Source: an uncultured virus (IMG/VR IMGVR_UViG_3300020204_003072) (lineage: Duplodnaviria > Heunggongvirae > Uroviricota > Caudoviricetes). Taken from it: a stretch of DNA of 64,000 bases. Position 1 is the first letter of the stretch. Every line of letters begins with the position of its first letter. This document shows positions 27,193-56,056 of the stretch, one piece after another. The stretch spans positions 62,001 through 126,000 of IMG/VR virus record IMGVR_UViG_3300020204_003072, one strand, 5' to 3'. The notes under the pieces are model-generated. The model ran no database searches. It had not been told where the DNA came from and saw nothing but the letters and a program-made list of their open reading frames with translations. The position numbers were made by a program, and so were the translations under genes.

Positions 27193-28716
27193 TTATCTTT
27201 TATTATACATAAAATTTATTGTATTGTAAACAAATTCTGGTGACATTGTAGGAGTTTCCGTTGGTGTCATCCCATGTTTTTTTCTATAGTGTTCGGTTCC
27301 TCTTTTAAAATTATCATTCCATTCAGGTGTCCTTGCAATTGTACTTTCTTGAATTGAATTTGGAATATCAGTCAAAAACTTCCAACTATCTTCAATGTCG
27401 GCAAAATACCAGAAAGGTGGGTGGAATTTATTTTTAATTGCCTGGTATGTGTGTTCTACGTGTTCCCATGCGTTTTTAAACATTGGGTCAAACAGACCAA
27501 TTTTATCTAAAACTGACTTGTGATAATAAGAAAATGCACCAACACAGTTTGGATATAAAACAATTTTAATACCATCTGGATATGGAATAACCATTCTTGG
27601 ATTTGGCTCACCGTCAACGTCTTTCCTATCTTCAAGTGTTGTAAACCCAGTAGAACCTTTTTTATTTGCGGGTCCGTGAAGAGCAAAATTTAAGTGTTTT
27701 ATACCAGATAATACTGAATGTTTTATATATTCTTCAAATACCTTTTCATCTTTAATTAAAATATCATCTTCCATTAAAAATATATGTTCACAACCTTGCT
27801 CTAAAAGATATTTCATTGCGGTATTTTTTGCAGCACCAACACATTGGTTTTTTTCGTGTTGGATTATGTGTGCTTGTTCTGGGTACGAAGAACTATCGTA
27901 TGGTGTACCATCATTTACAATAACAAAATTTTTCATCCATTTTGGTACAGTAAATGCCGATTGTTTTATCCTATGCTCAGCTTTATATGTGGTCATGCCA
28001 ATACCAACCTTAGATATATCAAGAATCATCTTTTCTTCTAAAGTTTTATTACTTGTTAATCTAACTGGTATTACTTCTTTATACTTTTCTTCAAACTTAA
28101 TTTTATTTTTTTCCCACTGTTCATTTGTTTGACCTATAGACATATGTGTTACACGAATTTGTGTTGTAACAGCAAGCCTAACATTATTCAAATAGTTTTC
28201 AAGACAAAAAGGAATTTCATAAAAATGAAATCCTTCAAATGATTCATCAAACCTTCTTTGAATCTTTTTCTTATCAACAGCAAAAAATAATCCATCAAGA
28301 ACAACAACTTCTTTTAGTTTATTTCCCTGGTCTTGAGAATATGTATTGGTCCACTTTTTTCCTTCGTGTTTGTGTGAAACAATACCAGTCATAGATTCTT
28401 TTAGTGTCCACCAACGACCATCAATTAAATCAGTTGTTCCAGCAATACCAATAATACCATACTCTGGATTTTTATTAAAAAGTTTTAATAATTTTTCACC
28501 CCAGTTATTTGTGTCAAATTCAATATCATCGTGACAAAAAACAACAATATTATTTTTTGCTTCATTTAATATTTCATTATAAACTTGAGCAAGACCCTTT
28601 TCACCATTATTAACCTTTTCAATAACTTCAATTTTCTTTCCACCACCACAAGCTTTTTTGTAATATTCTATTAGTGTTGGATTATGTTTTCTTGTTGAGT
28701 ATCCTATTGTAATCAT
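27193..28716 (-). CDS. Two-domain GT2-like glycosyltransferase
   Basis: FCHDDI in the first domain; IVNDG...KN....L...HIFLMEDD in the second. Confidence 0.8.
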   Translation of the reverse strand: MITIGYSTRKHNPTLIEYYKKACGGGKKIEVIEKVNNGEKGLAQVYNEILNEAKNNIVVFCHDDIEFDTNNWGEKLLKLFNKNPEYGIIGIAGTTDLIDGRWWTLKESMTGIVSHKHEGKKWTNTYSQDQGNKLKEVVVLDGLFFAVDKKKIQRRFDESFEGFHFYEIPFCLENYLNNVRLAVTTQIRVTHMSIGQTNEQWEKNKIKFEEKYKEVIPVRLTSNKTLEEKMILDISKVGIGMTTYKAEHRIKQSAFTVPKWMKNFVIVNDGTPYDSSSYPEQAHIIQHEKNQCVGAAKNTAMKYLLEQGCEHIFLMEDDILIKDEKVFEEYIKHSVLSGIKHLNFALHGPANKKGSTGFTTLEDRKDVDGEPNPRMVIPYPDGIKIVLYPNCVGAFSYYHKSVLDKIGLFDPMFKNAWEHVEHTYQAIKNKFHPPFWYFADIEDSWKFLTDIPNSIQESTIARTPEWNDNFKRGTEHYRKKHGMTPTETPTMSPEFVYNTINFMYNKR

Positions 28717-29276
28717 ATTCCCGTACTTCCAAATCCTTTATCAGACCTATCTTTGTCTTCAACGCTTTTAACTTCTTTTATTTTAACCCACCTTCCGCTA
28801 ACAACAGGACATAAAACGCCTTGAGCAATTTTTTGACCTTTTTCTATTTTAATTTTACCATTTGTTGTGTTAAATAATATTACTTTGATTTCACCGGTAT
28901 ATCCTTGATCTACAGTTCCTGGTGAATTTAAAACCATAAGTCCCTGTTTTAAAGCAAGACCGCTTTTAGACCTAACCTGAATTTCGTAGTTTTCAGGAAT
29001 ATCCAAACGTAAACCAGTTGGAACTAAAGCTCTACCAAAAGGTTCAATATAGATTTCTTCAGTTGAATGTAAGTCAAAACCAGAATCTGAAGGGTATGCG
29101 TAATTTGGCGTAACAACTTCATCAGTTTCTTTTGAAAACCTTAAATCTATTGTTGGTTGATAAACACCAAGTTCTTTTTCAAGGGTTTCAACATCTATTC
29201 CAAATTCATTTAATATTTTATTGTAATCAATATCTGCGATTGAATCGTCAAACAAATTTTCTATATTATCACTCAT
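28713..29276 (-). CDS. dut: Trimeric dUTPase
   Basis: SGFDL, RSKSGLA, GTVDQGYTGEI and RSDKGFGSTG motifs. Confidence 0.95.
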   Translation of the reverse strand: MSDNIENLFDDSIADIDYNKILNEFGIDVETLEKELGVYQPTIDLRFSKETDEVVTPNYAYPSDSGFDLHSTEEIYIEPFGRALVPTGLRLDIPENYEIQVRSKSGLALKQGLMVLNSPGTVDQGYTGEIKVILFNTTNGKIKIEKGQKIAQGVLCPVVSGRWVKIKEVKSVEDKDRSDKGFGSTGI

Positions 29277-29974
29277 TCTAAACTTTTTAATTTCATTATT
29301 GCTTCAATTAAAACATCCACATCTTTTTCACAATATTCTGTGATTTCTTTCATTTTTTGTTCTTCCCAATATGCTTTGTGTACTGAATCTCCAGTTATTT
29401 CACCATCCTTTGGTGTTGGTATATCTAAACAAGAACATAATAAATCTAATGAACCAATTGATGTGTAAGAACCATATTGCCAAATTTCTTTTGTATCAAT
29501 TGCTTTTATTTCCCAAGGTTTTGTATCATAAGATGGTAAAATTTTTGAAGGACGAATCCCATTTATAATCATTCGTTTTGCTGTCATTGGGATGTCAAAA
29601 TTTTTTAAATTATGTCCACAAAGATAGAATCCAAGTTTTTCACATCTATCAAGTAATGTTCTTACTTCTTTTAATAATTTTTTTTCATCTTCACCAGAAA
29701 AAGATTGTTTTTTTGTTTCGCCATTTTCTAAAACAAATGCAACTGATACACAAACAATTTTTGCAAACTCTGGTACAAGAGCTGCTCGTTTTTTAAAAAC
29801 TTCATCTTTTGATAATCCCAAATCTTCTGGAAATCGTTTTAAAAACCAATCAAAATATTTATCAAATTGATTTGCAATTTCTGGACTAAACTTTTGACAA
29901 GATTCATAATCCGGACAACCACCAACGGTTTCAATATCCAAGAATAATATTTTTGTTATAGGTATGTTTATCAT
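29273..29974 (-). CDS. PolB-type DEDD 3'-5' exonuclease
   Basis: LDIET, GHNLKNFDIP, YCEKDV. Confidence 0.88.
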   Translation of the reverse strand: MINIPITKILFLDIETVGGCPDYESCQKFSPEIANQFDKYFDWFLKRFPEDLGLSKDEVFKKRAALVPEFAKIVCVSVAFVLENGETKKQSFSGEDEKKLLKEVRTLLDRCEKLGFYLCGHNLKNFDIPMTAKRMIINGIRPSKILPSYDTKPWEIKAIDTKEIWQYGSYTSIGSLDLLCSCLDIPTPKDGEITGDSVHKAYWEEQKMKEITEYCEKDVDVLIEAIMKLKSLE

Positions 29975-29975
29975 T

Positions 29976-31223
29976 TTATTTAATTAAAGATTTGTAAAAT
30001 TGTGCTCTTGTTTCTGTCACTCGGTTTAAATCATATTTGTCTTTAACTGTTTCATATAGTCTTTCACCAAGATCTGTAATCATATTTGGGTTTTCAACTA
30101 ACTTTTTAATATTTTTTGCCCAATCACTATGATTATTATTTTCATTTACAAGTAATGCGTTTCCATCTGTAAATTGTCCATTTTTAAGTGCATGTTTTAA
30201 ATCAATAGTATATGGACCAACATTAGAAGCAATTAAAGCTTTTTTATAAAAACCAGCTTCAATAACTTTAAGTTGAGACTTCATTCTGTTAAAAATATGG
30301 TTTTTAATTGGTGCTAAAGAAATATCAAATTTAGAATAGTTTTTTGCATAACTTGTAACTGGTCTTGTCCAAACCCTTACATAGTTCTCATCTAAAACAC
30401 CAGGATAATCATTTTCTGTAAATGTATCTAAATAATCTTTATATTTTGGTGTTATAATTTTATAGTTGTCCGTAAAAATTTGTTCGTATTTAACCCAAAC
30501 AGTTTCTTCTGGTTTTATTGATCTTTGTGTTTTTTGTCCTGTTTGTTGGTTAATTTCTGTTACAGTACCACGAATATCAAAACCACAAACGTAATATTGT
30601 AACTTGTCTTGAATCGTTGATAGTTTTGAAACCATACCATTTAAAAGTTGTAAATCGTGTAGGTGTGAAGAACCACCTAACCAACCAATTCTAATTTTAT
30701 CAGACTTTGGTGTTTGTTCATTAAATTGCGGGTCAGCTGGGTCAACAGCATTTGGTAATACAATAACATTTTTGTTGAACTTTCTAATTTCATTTGCAAA
30801 TAATTCTGTGGTTGTAATAACATAATCAGAAACTTTTAAATTTGCAATAATTTTTTCGTGTAATTTATTTTGAATTATTAATTGATGTATTGGGTGTTCT
30901 TTTGTTGGTAACCAATAATCATCAATGTCTGCAATAACAATAATACCCAATGACCTTAACATTTTAATAATGTTTGTACAATTATCGTAATCGGTACCAA
31001 TACTTCTATGGAAATGAACAATTTGATATTTTTTCCAGTAATTTATATCATTTATTTTTGGTTCGTAATCTATATCCACATGGAATTCATCTGGATACAT
31101 ATTTTGTAATTTAACGTGGGGGTCAACTGATCGGAATTTACCTCAGCCAACCCCCGACTGGTCACTTGGGAGAACCAATACTCTGATTCTTTCACGACCA
31201 TTCAAGGGGCTATTTTCTGTCAT
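29976..31223 (-). CDS. GT-B/GT4-like glycosyltransferase with an in-frame TGA at codon 27 (candidate ribosomal bypass)
   Basis: ATG at 31223 gives MTENSPLNGRERIRVLVLPSDQSGVG*GKFRSVDPHVKLQN, in frame with the 374 aa ORF (IADIDDYW, IGWLGGSSH, KSQLKVIEAG). Confidence 0.8.
31118..31155 (-). other. mRNA hairpin enclosing the in-frame UGA
   Basis: GGGGGUUGGCUGA pairs with UCAGUUGACCCCC (13 bp, three G-U) around a 12-nt loop. Confidence 0.8.
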
Positions 31224-32124
31224 ATTTTTTAATTAGATTATTTATTATGGTTTTATCTGATTTATAATCTGATTCCCAAACCACTTCTAAATTATAACCC
31301 TTATTTTTTATTAAGTCAATCTTGTTTTTGTCGTATTCCCACAATTGTTCAGCGGTCATACCTTTTACTTGATGAAAATATTCTTTACTATATTTGTTTG
31401 GGTTACAATGCCAATAATCACCATTGTATTCTATTATTAAGTTTAATTGTGGTAAAAAAATATCACAAATTTTTGTATCAATTTTAAAAGAATGAATTAC
31501 TTCATATCCTAATTTTTTTATTTTATTTAAAATTTGTTTTTCTGTTTTAGATCTTATTACAGATTTAATTTTTCCCAATCTTTTGGTTTCTTTGATTGTT
31601 TCAGAAAAAATTTTTCTAACGTGTTCCATTTCGCCATTTTTCCATTTTTTTCTAATCATATCAGCTACCTTTTTCCTATGTTCTGGATTTGCCATAGAAT
31701 TATTTTTACCAGTCGCTTTACCTATTCTACTTTTAGAAATTTGTTCTTTTGTCTCTTTTGAATGTTTTTTTCCATAAAATGGATTTCTTTCCCCAACCAT
31801 AACATCACTCAAACATTTTTTACATACAGAATTTTCATTGAGCGCTTTAAAATAGTTTCTACAAGTTGTTGTTGGGTGTGTTGTTGCAACATCAGTTTCT
31901 TTTTTACAATTAGGACAAATCCTTTTTGTTATATACTTTTCACCAACCTTTTCAATTTTTAGTGATTTACACCTATCTCGTTTTTTTGTTACATTATTTT
32001 TTTTTAAAATTCCAAGAATTACTGGTTTTGACACATTAAATTCTTTTGCCAGCCCTAAAGAACTTTTACCTGACAAATATTCTTTAATTACTAAATCTTC
32101 ATCTAAATTAATTTTTTTACCCAT
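31210..32124 (-). mobile_element. Free-standing homing endonuclease (HTH, zinc-finger-like, NUMOD3, Vsr/DUF559-like nuclease)
   Basis: CPNC/CKKC, GERNPFYGKKHSKETK (NUMOD3), D.....LIIEYNGDYWH...VVWESD. Confidence 0.85.
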
Positions 32125-53619: not shown

Positions 53620-53665
53620 AAGTAAAGAATTTATAAAAATAAAACTATTTATAAAATAAAAAAAA

Positions 53666-56056
53666 ATGGCAGATAAAAGAATTTCGGAATTACCATACTT
53701 AGGTAATTCAGGTTATACAACGAGCGACATTATTCCAATTGTAAATTACTTGGTTAGTGTAACTGGTGAAACAAAACACACACCAATTAGTCAATTCAAA
53801 AACTATATATTGAGTGGTTTTTCAGATAATTTTATTACTGGAGGAACATATTCTAATGGTACAATCACACTTGATAGACAAAATGGTTCTGTATCAATTA
53901 GTGGACTATATACAGGTGGTACAGATTTTTATGTCACTGGAGGAACATATTCTAATGGTACAATCACACTTGATAGACAAAATGGTTCTGTATCAATTAG
54001 TGGACTATATACAGGTGGTACAGATTTTTTTGTTACTGGAGGAACATATGATAATACAACTGGTACACTAACATTAGAAGATAATAACGGAACGTCATTT
54101 GGTATTACAGGATTTACAACTGGTGGAACACCAACACTACAACAAGTATTAGATTTCAATCACGACCTTATAGATGGAAACAATTTTCAAGGAACAAACG
54201 CAGGATTTGGAAATTCAGGAATAAATGTAATTGCACTTGGAACAGATTCAGCCTATTATAACACAGGAGTTAGGGTGATTGCATTGGGAACAAATTCAGC
54301 AAGATACAACAAAGGAGATGATGTAACAGCATCGGGTTATCAATCAGCTTTTTTTAATACAGGAAATACTTTGACCGCATTGGGAAATTATTCAGCATAT
54401 TTCAACACAGGATATAATGTAACCGCAACGGGTTATCGTTCAGCCTATTACAACATCGGAGATAGTGTAACCGCATTGGGTGGAGATTCGGCTTTTTGTA
54501 ACAAAGGAGCTTGTGTAACCGCATTGGGAATACAGTCAGCCCTTTGCAACACAGGAAATAATCTCACCGCGGTGGGAACTCTATCGGCTCTTTGCAATAT
54601 AGGATATAATGTAACCGCATCGGGTTATCGTTCAGCCTTTAGGAACTCAGGAACTACTGTAACTGCATTGGGAACAAATTCAGCGTATTGTAACACAGGA
54701 AATGGTGTAACCGCATCGGGAATAAATTCAGCGTATTGTAACACAGGAAATAATGTAACCGCATCGGGAAATTATTCAGCATATTCCAACACAGGAAATA
54801 ATGTAACAGCATTGGGAAGAAGTTCAGCCTTTATGAACTCAGGAAGTACTATAACAGTATTGGGAACAAGTTCAGCGTATTGTAACACAGGAAATGATGT
54901 AACCGCATTGGGTAATTGTTCAGCCTTTAGGAACTTAGGAACTACTGTGACCGCATCTGGAAATTATTCAGCTTTTTGCAACAGAGGAAATAGGGTAACC
55001 GCATTGGGAATAAATTCAGCATATTGTAACTTAGGAAATGATGTAACCGTATTGGGTTGTAATTCAGCCTTTAGGAACTCAGGAAGTACTGTAACAGCAT
55101 TGGGAACATGTTCAGTTTTTTGCAACATAGGAAATAATGTAACCGCATTGGGAATAAATTCAGCATATTGTAACTTAGGAAATGATGTAACGGCATTGGG
55201 ACCAGATTCAGCCTTTAGGAACTCAGGAAGTACTGTTACCGCATTGGGAACAGGTTCAGCCTCTAGTAACTCGGGAAGTTACGTAACCGCATTGGGGATT
55301 CAATCGACGTGTTACAACACAGGAAATAATGTAACCGCATTGGGGACCCAATCGGCTAGTTGCAACATAGGAAATTGTATAACCGCATTGGGACAAGGTT
55401 CAGCCTCTAGGAACTCAGGAGATGATGTAACCGCATTGGGTTGTAATTCAGCCTTTAGGAACTTAGGAACTACTGTAACCGCATTGGGAATAAATTCAGC
55501 ATTTTGCAACATAGGAAATGATGTAACGGCATTGGGACCAAATTCAGCAGAATCCAACATAGGAAGTTATGTAACCGCATTGGGAAGAAGTTCAGCCTCT
55601 AGTAACTCGGGAAGTTACATAACAGCATTGGGAACAAATTCAGCGTATTCAAACTCAGGAAATGATGTAACCGTATTGGGTTGTAGTTCAGCCTTTAGGA
55701 ACTCAGGAAGTACTGTAACAGCATTGGGAAATTATTCAGCATATTTCAACACGGGAAATAATGTAACCGCATTGGGACAAGGTTCAGCATTTTGCAACAT
55801 AGGAAATGATGTAACGGCATTGGGAACAGGTTCAGCCTCTAGTAACTCGGGAAATAATGTAATTTCTTTAGGTATTAACGCAGGTAATGGTAATGGTTTT
55901 AGTCCTGCATTTATAGTTGCTAATACAGAATTACCATCTTATTTGAATCATGCAGCAGCAAGTGCTGCAATAACAATAGCAGCAGGTGCGGTAGCAGGCA
56001 ACACTTATTTTTATTATAACCAAGGTACTGATTCAATAGGAGCTGTAAGACTTTAA
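53666..56056 (+). CDS. Fibre/adhesin-like protein with 34 tandem 16-aa repeats
   Basis: N-terminal KRISELP, VTGGTY repeats, TLQQV, then NxGxxVTALGxxSAxx repeats. Confidence 0.85.
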   Translation: MADKRISELPYLGNSGYTTSDIIPIVNYLVSVTGETKHTPISQFKNYILSGFSDNFITGGTYSNGTITLDRQNGSVSISGLYTGGTDFYVTGGTYSNGTITLDRQNGSVSISGLYTGGTDFFVTGGTYDNTTGTLTLEDNNGTSFGITGFTTGGTPTLQQVLDFNHDLIDGNNFQGTNAGFGNSGINVIALGTDSAYYNTGVRVIALGTNSARYNKGDDVTASGYQSAFFNTGNTLTALGNYSAYFNTGYNVTATGYRSAYYNIGDSVTALGGDSAFCNKGACVTALGIQSALCNTGNNLTAVGTLSALCNIGYNVTASGYRSAFRNSGTTVTALGTNSAYCNTGNGVTASGINSAYCNTGNNVTASGNYSAYSNTGNNVTALGRSSAFMNSGSTITVLGTSSAYCNTGNDVTALGNCSAFRNLGTTVTASGNYSAFCNRGNRVTALGINSAYCNLGNDVTVLGCNSAFRNSGSTVTALGTCSVFCNIGNNVTALGINSAYCNLGNDVTALGPDSAFRNSGSTVTALGTGSASSNSGSYVTALGIQSTCYNTGNNVTALGTQSASCNIGNCITALGQGSASRNSGDDVTALGCNSAFRNLGTTVTALGINSAFCNIGNDVTALGPNSAESNIGSYVTALGRSSASSNSGSYITALGTNSAYSNSGNDVTVLGCSSAFRNSGSTVTALGNYSAYFNTGNNVTALGQGSAFCNIGNDVTALGTGSASSNSGNNVISLGINAGNGNGFSPAFIVANTELPSYLNHAAASAAITIAAGAVAGNTYFYYNQGTDSIGAVRL
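53837..54034 (+). repeat. 99-nt tandem duplication
   Basis: 53837-53930 is identical to 53936-54029. Confidence 0.9.
54212..55843 (+). repeat. 48-nt coding tandem array, 34 units
   Basis: Core gtaaccgcattggga recurs in an exact 48-nt register. Confidence 0.9.

Follow-up and report, generated by a model that had tools for sequence, protein, structure and literature searches.

What does a stop codon mean when it lies near the start of an otherwise open gene, between two codons for the same amino acid? The question is raised by a 64,000-nucleotide (nt) stretch (here called the window) of the genome of an uncultured virus, in which a glycosyltransferase (GT) gene, starting at ATG 31223-31221 on the minus strand, overlaps the stop codon of a homing endonuclease gene and is then interrupted by a single TGA at 31145-31143, between the glycine codons GGC and GGT. 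An initial annotation of the window had placed these elements at the same positions and had proposed that the ribosome skips the stop together with one of the matched codons (6 nt in all), in the manner of the mobA/gene 60 element of phage T4. The positions were borne out, and the proposal that the stop between matched glycine codons is skipped in translation is strongly supported by the comparison of related genes described below. From this comparison we consider it likely that the locus is a mobile endonuclease cassette, which carries a micro coding gap decoded by a programmed stop-hop.

The interrupted glycosyltransferase gene

The first open reading frame (ORF) of the interrupted gene, ORF1 (codons 1-26; 31146-31223, minus strand, as are all features of the locus), would encode strand β1 and the glycine-rich start of helix α1, as judged from the sequence and a model fold. 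Codons 24-29 read GGG GTT GGC TGA GGT AAA. They comprise the putative take-off codon GGC for Gly26 (31146-31148), the in-frame TGA, which makes up the entire 3-nt coding gap and is seen in the window, in relatives and in contigs of DNA runs, the putative landing codon GGT (31140-31142), and AAA (31139-31137), which would be the next codon decoded. Past the TGA the same frame stays open until a TAA at 29978-29976, and this second part, ORF2 (29976-31139; 387 sense codons and the TAA), represents the body of a GT-B enzyme of GT4-like type by its fold matches. Translated straight across the interruption, the gene reads ...VLVLPSDQSGVG, then the stop, then GKFRSVDPH.... At its 5′ end it overlaps the endonuclease ORF out of frame by 14 nt (31210-31223, ATGACAGAAAATAG); in 17 related loci with a full endonuclease this overlap is 8-17 nt.

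The initial annotation had left the TGA itself to be confirmed. Contigs from two DNA runs not flagged as a source of the genome match 30894-31500 and 30894-31232 with no differences, and the same TGA is present in 20 of 20 related viral contigs, so that the TGA is not a sequencing error. Coverage of the stretch in runs X23 and X24 is partial. The TGA is also an ordinary stop rather than a sign of a changed code, because TGA terminates 22 of the 80 stop-to-stop ORFs of at least 100 codons and is internal in no other long gene. These terminators, together with alleles that have TAA or TAG at the same place (below), rule out an alternative code in which TGA stands for Trp or Gly; selenocysteine is ruled out on the same grounds, the site being the glycine-rich start of a helix. 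No suppressor or glycine tRNA is encoded in the 127.7-kb genome, the sole tRNA gene of which is that for tRNA-Arg(TCT). A scan of the same genome for further junctions of the type codon, stop, gap and same codon gave nine candidates that resemble ordinary gene ends, the filter being too weak to be informative.

The interruption falls at a sensitive point of the enzyme. An uninterrupted homologue (P0004, about 93% identical to the window protein) was modelled by AlphaFold2 with a pLDDT of 96.6 as a GT-B fold, that is, two Rossmann-like domains with a glycine-rich turn between β1 (residues 4-9) and α1 (from G15). The closest solved folds are the GT4 enzymes PglA, GlgM, BshA, MshA and PimA (E about 1e-12), and a Pfam match to Glyco_trans_1_4 is weak, below its cut-off. 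On this modelling the downstream gene is a GT-B glycosyltransferase, GT4-like. The gap separates G17 from K18 within the first turn of α1, two residues ahead of R20, which is invariant in 81 sequences. The family is very large in phages (7743 matches among 8000 scored candidates; 5267 representative clusters), and the spacing G-x-[GS]-x-[FY]-R is intact in 55 of the 62 distant representatives where the motif was found. About 100 of the 120 best protein matches, 404 amino acids long, have SGVGKFRSVDP, and SGVGKFRS is present in 57 of 57 uninterrupted alleles. A 6-nt hop would give exactly this sequence and so restore the family spacing, as the initial annotation had suggested.

Public gene callers deal with the interrupted gene in two ways: they either start it at ATG 31100 (P0011, 374 amino acids) or print a W at the stop, as under code 4. 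The first choice would delete β1 and α1, as seen from the model of the uninterrupted homologue, which upholds the view of the initial annotation that a start at 31100 costs the protein its first β strand and glycine loop. The second choice accounts for 11 of the 120 best matches, which read SGVGWGKFRSVDP and all have a longer N-terminus, ...NGRERIRVLV...; another protein, P0118, has the cassette-type N-terminus but not the extra two residues. The printed W is an artefact, since the DNA has TGA in 20 of 20 gene loci. Two extra sense codons in homologues, which the initial annotation had regarded as an argument against a hop, were not found: none of the homologues carries extra residues at this position. 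Because gene callers truncate these genes or print W, interrupted genes are systematically mis-annotated in viral metagenomes; public records of this kind include P0011, P0002, P0013, P0022, P0023, P0085 and others.

In the hop that we propose, peptidyl-tRNA-Gly would occupy GGC (31148-31146) in the ribosomal P site, and UGA in the A site would stall decoding. The tRNA would then unpair, the mRNA would slip by 6 nt and the anticodon would re-pair to GGU (31142-31140). Decoding would restart at AAA, nine nucleotides having been read as one glycine, and the product, ...SGVGKFRSVDP..., would have a normal start of α1. In relatives the same hop would span gaps of 2-11 nt in any frame, using glycine (GGY to GGN) or serine (AGY to AGY) codon pairs.

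Natural alleles of the gap

Related loci were collected in several ways. A pattern permitting TGA or TGG at the stop found 21 viral contigs, 20 of which contain this gene; all 20 have TGA, followed by 378-389 open codons, and upstream of them lies a full endonuclease in 17 (45-84% identical) and only a C-terminal remnant in 3. Further loci were fetched via the endonuclease protein and via the GT protein alone, giving sets that are unconstrained on gap features (L022-L181). These fetches contained 23 distinct alleles interrupted, like that of the window, by six nucleotides, 8 of them with TAA replacing TGA. Endonuclease relatives that at first seemed to lie elsewhere were in fact upstream of more distant GT homologues, which are cut at the same codon and have other gap lengths, for instance (take-off codon, gap, landing codon) GGT-ta-GGT, AGT-tg-AGC, AGC-tgaa-AGC, AGC-tgaca-AGC, AGC-tgacta-AGC, GGC-tgaatta-GGT and GGC-tgaatttaaa-GGA. 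Two wider pattern scans, both of which required GGGGT and a TRR triplet, are the source of most alleles and enlarged the collection to 224 loci, with 112 distinct interrupted alleles; 15 new loci missed by the classifier comprised 11 unrelated chance matches and 4 further alleles of the same kind.

Among these 112 alleles the gap is 3 nt long in 70, 5 nt in 14, 2 nt in 13, 8 nt in 5, 4 nt in 4 and 6 nt in 3, with single alleles of 7, 10 and 11 nt, and it changes the reading frame in 39. The A-site codon, kept as a stop though its identity varies, is TGA in 68, TAA in 34 and TAG in 10. In the unconstrained sets, a stop directly follows the take-off codon in 27 of 27 interrupted alleles (TGA 16, TAA 10, TAG 1). 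All 112 alleles, and likewise all 27 of the unconstrained sets, have GGY or AGY for take-off, and 57 uninterrupted alleles have at this position GGT (35), GGA (19) or GGG (3). Take-off and landing codons form Gly/Gly pairs in 95 alleles, Ser/Ser in 12, AGC/AGA in 2, Ser/Gly in 2 and Gly/Ser in 1, with the first two bases equal in 109 of the 112. A serine take-off codon covaries with a serine landing codon (12, 4, 1 and 95 alleles; Fisher p 5e-12, kinship ignored), and altogether 36 different combinations of take-off codon, gap and landing codon occur.

Both parts of the gene appear to be translated and under selection. An ATG-started ORF1 of 25-29 codons is present in 112 of 112 interrupted alleles, compared with 17 codons in uninterrupted ones, and ORF2, in the 71 alleles where the locus end does not truncate it, has 378-778 open codons. 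The ratio of nonsynonymous to synonymous change (pN/pS) is 0.26 for the 13 codons before take-off (pS 0.63, near saturation; 93 distinct segments), 0.34 for the 13 codons past the landing codon and 0.49 for the following 50. Leu and Ser residues are invariant even though they are encoded by all six of their codons. Decay of the GT, the outcome that the initial annotation had seen as fatal to its proposal, is contradicted by this purifying selection on ORF1. The comparison shows a gene kept functional on either side of the gap, and a hop is the one reading that holds for every allele. If the peptidyl-tRNA in the P site re-paired to a matched codon 5-14 nt downstream, this would explain all of them and yield exactly the uninterrupted protein.

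Three features around the gap are candidate stimulators. The first is the Shine-Dalgarno (SD)-like run GGGGGU at 31150-31155, the last G of which is 5 nt 5′ of the stop. Within the unconstrained sets the Gly codon two before take-off is GGG in 22 of 27 interrupted alleles versus 1 of 57 uninterrupted alleles; this codon yields a GGGGU run (GGGGGU in the window), which is able to pair with the anti-SD sequence and, as this codon preference suggests, may stimulate the hop. The second is the cassette-encoded N-terminal extension MTENSPLNGR... (31194-31223), which is absent from uninterrupted alleles and might act through the nascent peptide. All 83 distinct ORF1 peptides carry a conserved extension of 9-12 residues with a Pro followed by G/S-R-[EK]-[KR]-I-[RK].

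The third is a GC-rich hairpin at 31118-31155 (GGGGGUUGGCUGA / UCAGUUGACCCCC), which encloses the take-off, stop and landing codons and has 13 pairs, three of them G-U, plus 2 apical pairs. In a 101-nt context its energy is -30.3 kcal/mol, against -21.6 ± 3.1 for 200 shuffled sequences (z -2.8; one equally good). The median energy is -16.5 kcal/mol in the 23 six-nt alleles versus -5.1 in 51 uninterrupted ones. Alleles of the TGA lineage have a strong hairpin, TAA alleles a weak one or none, and the other gap classes none. The extension and, in the lineage of the window, the hairpin may likewise stimulate the hop.

Inheritance with the endonuclease and alternative readings

The ORF upstream of the GT (31210-32124, with its stop TAG at 31212-31210) encodes a free-standing protein of 304 amino acids, with an N-terminal helix-turn-helix-like region, a Cys4 ribbon, a NUMOD3 motif (Pfam E 1.6e-7) and a C-terminal nuclease domain similar to Vsr and I-Bth0305I; its PHROG match is a homing endonuclease. 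A search of the PDB by sequence with the endonuclease and GT proteins gave nothing significant, and identification came from fold searches. The AlphaFold2 model of the endonuclease (pLDDT 85.6) gave as top folds in Foldseek, for the nuclease domain, the catalytic domain of I-Bth0305I (3r3p; E 8e-3, TM 0.73 on target) and Vsr (1vsr). With these two the window enzyme has in common the C-terminal nuclease fold, and it is, like I-Bth0305I, free-standing in phage DNA, although sequence identity is 16-18%. D221, E232, H239 and the GDYWHCNP block are invariant in 29 endonuclease relatives. On the strength of the modelled fold the upstream ORF is a Vsr-like homing endonuclease of the I-Bth0305I family, with predicted activity. 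There is no second copy of it in the 127.7-kb genome.

Comparison with an endonuclease-free allele (L103) delimits what the cassette brings. Homology to L103 ends at window position 32104 and returns at 31193, so that about 32103-31194 is specific to the window. Positions 31235-31116 are 95-98% identical to other gap-bearing alleles; in 31115-31056 identity to these falls to 78%, and that to L103 is 93%, which marks a recombination boundary just 3′ of the hairpin. The cassette thus extends over approximately 31116-32124 and comprises the endonuclease, a new N-terminus, re-coded β1 and loop codons, the gap and about 25 nt beyond. It probably supplies the GT with a new start and its 9-12-residue extension, re-coded first codons and a micro gap, along with the endonuclease ORF. 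The start of the endonuclease ORF (32104-32124) corresponds to the start position of the uninterrupted GT (2501-2518 of L103), and the first codons of the two are alike (MGKKINL versus MEKINVL), so that the nuclease seems to have captured the GT's own start region.

The gap moves with this cassette and not with the rest of the gene. On a tree of GT bodies (72 of 74 alleles, two with short bodies having been dropped), the six-nt gap state needs 17 changes, compared with a mean of about 19 after shuffling. The nearest GT-body relatives of the window are uninterrupted (94% identity), and the interruption is patchily present among near-identical host genes. On a tree of 40 distinct near-full-length endonucleases (24 upstream of gapped genes, 14 of uninterrupted ones, 2 unknown), the gap state needs only 3 changes (11.6 on average after shuffling; none of 500 shuffles reached so few). 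Comparison of the trees shows that the gap follows the phylogeny of the endonuclease and not that of the GT body, and is inherited with the nuclease. The linkage of insert and endonuclease proposed in the initial annotation is therefore upheld by the 3 changes against 17, but its further suggestion that the two occur only together is not. Where enough upstream DNA is available (84 alleles), the endonuclease is full in 55, a remnant in 14 and missing in 15, and the gap and open frames are retained in the 29 with a remnant or none; gapped alleles free of the nuclease have a conserved upstream gene at a distance of 75-130 nt from the extended start of the GT. Conversely, 14 nuclease relatives are found upstream of uninterrupted alleles. 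A sister endonuclease lineage, 38-53% identical (loci L036-L070, e.g. L036, L041, L054, L068), lies upstream of uninterrupted GT genes, with no overlap with the GT start and no N-terminal extension.

Such mobility could also mean that the cassette simply breaks the gene: the GT would be dead in every carrier, and frames would look intact only through homing into fresh functional alleles. In favour of this, the cassette moves far more readily than the gene body, interrupted alleles have uninterrupted ones as their closest relatives in each lineage, and homing elements can spread even when costly (10.1101/2022.08.31.505936). We nevertheless regard a dead GT as very improbable. The low pN/pS of ORF1 concerns a segment that is itself cassette-borne, with synonymous change saturated across endonucleases 45-84% identical; the stop and matched codons have been maintained through all 36 take-off, gap and landing combinations; and in the 29 of 84 alleles that have lost the nuclease the gap and a long ORF2 are still there.

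Readthrough of the stop by a near-cognate tRNA, such as that for Trp at UGA, would give ...SGVG-X-GKFRS... with two extra residues. The window gap is in frame, UGA is the leakiest of the bacterial stops, and public gene callers put a W here in 11 of the 120 best matches. As a general explanation we think it decidedly improbable. It cannot serve the 39 of 112 alleles whose gaps change the frame, 44 of the 112 have TAA or TAG, and the DNA of 20 of 20 loci reads TGA and not TGG; the genome encodes no suppressor tRNA, and the two residues would enter the first turn of α1 before the invariant R20, where no homologue has extras. In the in-frame alleles readthrough may occur alongside hopping.

Even less probable, in our estimate, is a split protein, in which ribosomes terminate at the TGA and re-initiation yields ORF2 as a separate product, the peptide of 26 residues being either dispensable or able to re-associate with it. 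UGAGGU and UAAGG are similar to SD sequences, and gene callers do begin a gene at ATG 31100 (P0011). However, a conserved codon for a restart is lacking: between the stop and codon 42 no ATG, GTG or TTG stands in frame, and the ATG of codon 42, that at 31100 in the window, is CTT, TTA or AAA in other alleles. A start there would lose β1 and α1, and purifying selection acts on the codons just past landing (pN/pS 0.34). The extra bases might instead be taken out ahead of translation, through RNA editing, splicing or transcriptional slippage; this was considered since it would also restore the frame, but it found no support and is the least credible of these readings, because the 2-11-nt gaps are mostly without homopolymer runs and have no intron-like features, and an RNA-library contig that matches 31102-31273 with 2 substitutions keeps the 6 nt (weak evidence, as DNA is possible in such a library).

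Several observations weigh against the stop-hop cassette as we have drawn it. That hopping occurs, and how efficiently, is what we infer from the comparison of alleles. The rule of matched codons is imperfect: the landing codon is GGA, a wobble mismatch for the GCC anticodon, in 14 of the 112 alleles and AGA in 2, and the first base is mismatched in 3 (AGT-taa-GGC, AGC-tgac-GGC and GGC-tgatg-AGC). The alleles are related, so that their counts are not independent events, and because the wider scan patterns required both GGGGT and a stop-like triplet, these two features can be judged only on the smaller unconstrained sets. Among the endonucleases on the tree, 14 of 38 relatives lie upstream of uninterrupted alleles; the gap is thus not needed by every member of the nuclease family, and these 14 weaken the idea, drawn by analogy with T4, that the gap may shield the cassette copy from its own endonuclease. 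The hairpin, too, is present in 19 of the 23 six-nt alleles and missing in 3-4, only 1 of its 15 pairs is changed on both sides, no better than in shuffled sequences, and consensus folding of the 23 alleles gave just a 3-pair stem. With no covariation and no counterpart among the other gap classes, the hairpin is at most a lineage-specific enhancer. Of what the initial annotation had said about it, the existence of a 13-pair, GC-rich stem at 31155-31118 held, in a window of 25-40% G+C (whole genome 29.9%); the covarying stems that it had proposed to look for were not seen.

Relation to known bypass systems and other features of the genome

The bypass of phage T4 gene 60 is reportedly situated within the MobA element (Bonocora 2011). 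For MobA/gene 60 a life cycle is described in which the N-terminal extension overlaps the ORF of the nuclease, a homologous region is re-coded, a gap is carried, and the nuclease is lost but the gap kept (10.1101/2022.08.31.505936); in the same account Manning & Atkins (2022) term the gene 60 cassette 'unique'. The GT cassette is alike in each of these respects: one mobile unit holds the nuclease, the overlapping N-terminal extension, the re-coded stretch and the coding gap, it is present or absent in close phages, and the nuclease decays or is lost while the gap stays. The resemblance to T4 mobA/gene 60 put forward in the initial annotation thus extends to the inheritance of all four parts as a unit. 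Also as in gene 60, the window has matched Gly take-off and landing codons and a stop after take-off, with the take-off codon and the stop inside the 5′ arm of a hairpin. The out-of-frame overlap is 8-32 nt in T4-type elements and 8-17 nt in the GT cassettes.

The differences are as clear. The gap is 50 nt in T4 gene 60 (20 nt in one clade) versus 2-11 nt here and 3 nt in the window, and the host gene is a T4 topoisomerase split into two proteins versus a glycosyltransferase cut at codon 26. GT alleles, unlike T4 gene 60, use Ser pairs besides Gly pairs. MobA is an HNH nuclease and that of the window is Vsr/I-Bth0305I-like with NUMOD3, without sequence similarity; no homology of the window locus to MobA or to the gene 60 cassette was found, the host gene being different as well.

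In Magnusiomyces mitochondria many short mobile inserts of 27-55 nt, the 'byp' elements, are bypassed between matched codons. They are not known to have a linked endonuclease gene. They are thus like the GT gaps in being mobile and bypassed between matched codons, and unlike them in length, in the mitochondrial setting and in the link to a nuclease. A 2016 review by Atkins and colleagues mentions these elements, states that no natural in-frame stop-hop was known, and notes that gene 60 had long been expected to have shorter counterparts (PMC5009743). Synthetic 'stop-hops' in Escherichia coli were obtained by Weiss et al. in 1987, engineered and at a low level (PMC5009743). Their architecture is that of the GT site. 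The title of that work names +5 and +6 events, and both classes are among the commonest in the GT alleles; in contrast to the engineered E. coli sites, the GT arrangement is natural, conserved and apparently required for an intact enzyme.

The terminase gene of Streptomyces phage Hau3 has two 10-nt gaps, for which an internal SD sequence, a stem-loop and also the landing codon were put forward as signals, and the junction peptide was detected by mass spectrometry in E. coli when UAA replaced UUA (PMC10732093). Like the GT gaps, these are short blocks that disrupt the frame of a phage gene and have, at their 5′ end, a slow A-site codon; they differ in the rare sense codon UUA as the trigger, in a proposed regulatory role, in having no homing endonuclease and in their presence in few genomes. 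In the RF2 (prfB) frameshift, a stimulatory SD sequence lies 6 nt 5′ of the UGA (PMC10732093). As proposed for the GT, the P-site tRNA re-pairs there with a stop in the A site and a G-rich, SD-like run upstream (5 nt in the GT); in RF2, however, re-pairing is to an overlapping codon (+1) and is autoregulatory, and in the GT the role of the SD-like run is suggested by conservation at synonymous sites.

The gene 60 and Hau3 terminase gaps are the closest published cases, and a literature search made without subscription journals or bioRxiv supplements found no description of endonuclease-linked micro gaps or of natural GT stop-hops. What is new here is bypassing linked to a homing cassette in miniature, in a different gene and with a different nuclease, together with a large natural allelic series. 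Natural examples of efficient bacterial bypassing are almost nil beyond T4 gene 60 and its homologues. The more than 100 natural variants of one site, which vary in gap length, stop, frame and tRNA pair, therefore make the rules of take-off, sliding and landing directly testable; likewise, as this would be a second, unrelated endonuclease family carrying a coding gap, the gap as target-site immunity becomes testable as a general principle.

We lean, if only slightly, towards the broader view that free-standing homing endonucleases of phages have, in micro gaps that are stop-hopped, a general and evolvable device. If so, a conserved codon, a stop and a repeat of the codon would let a nuclease plant a small number of untranslated bases in its own target and leave the protein unharmed. 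The GT family would then be a natural allelic series of one bypass site, a set of short-range counterparts of T4 gene 60, and would include the first natural in-frame stop-hops, whose efficiency would be set by the SD-like run, situated 5 nt upstream of the stop, and by the nascent peptide of the cassette.

The virus itself is represented by a single contig of 127,688 bases, of which the window covers positions 62001-126000, and encodes a family-B DNA polymerase and an HK97-type major head protein. The runs that contain its sequence are lake-water metagenomes. Its genome had no DNA match among 50,697 deposited phage records and no cultured carrier of the interrupted gene was found, the best protein matches among deposited phages being at most 35%; a Phapecoctavirus match that starts at residue 37 turned out to be an ordinary glycosyltransferase of 315 amino acids. 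In a distant subfamily (L044, L048, L052, L066 and L072) ORF2 is about 770-778 amino acids long; at about twice the usual GT length, these would be fused two-part proteins, and representatives of 700-830 amino acids also exist.

Directly downstream of the GT, at 27193-29974 on the minus strand, lie genes for a PolB-exonuclease-like 3′-5′ exonuclease, a dUTPase and a GT2-type glycosyltransferase of 507 amino acids with a weak match to TET-associated glycosyltransferases; this cluster may act on DNA or nucleotide sugars. Elsewhere in the window, an ORF on the plus strand (53660-56056) encodes a 798-amino-acid protein without a PHROG match, with about 34 copies of a 48-nt unit (72% matches) at 54216-55862, giving 16-residue repeats and a local G+C of up to 0.40.

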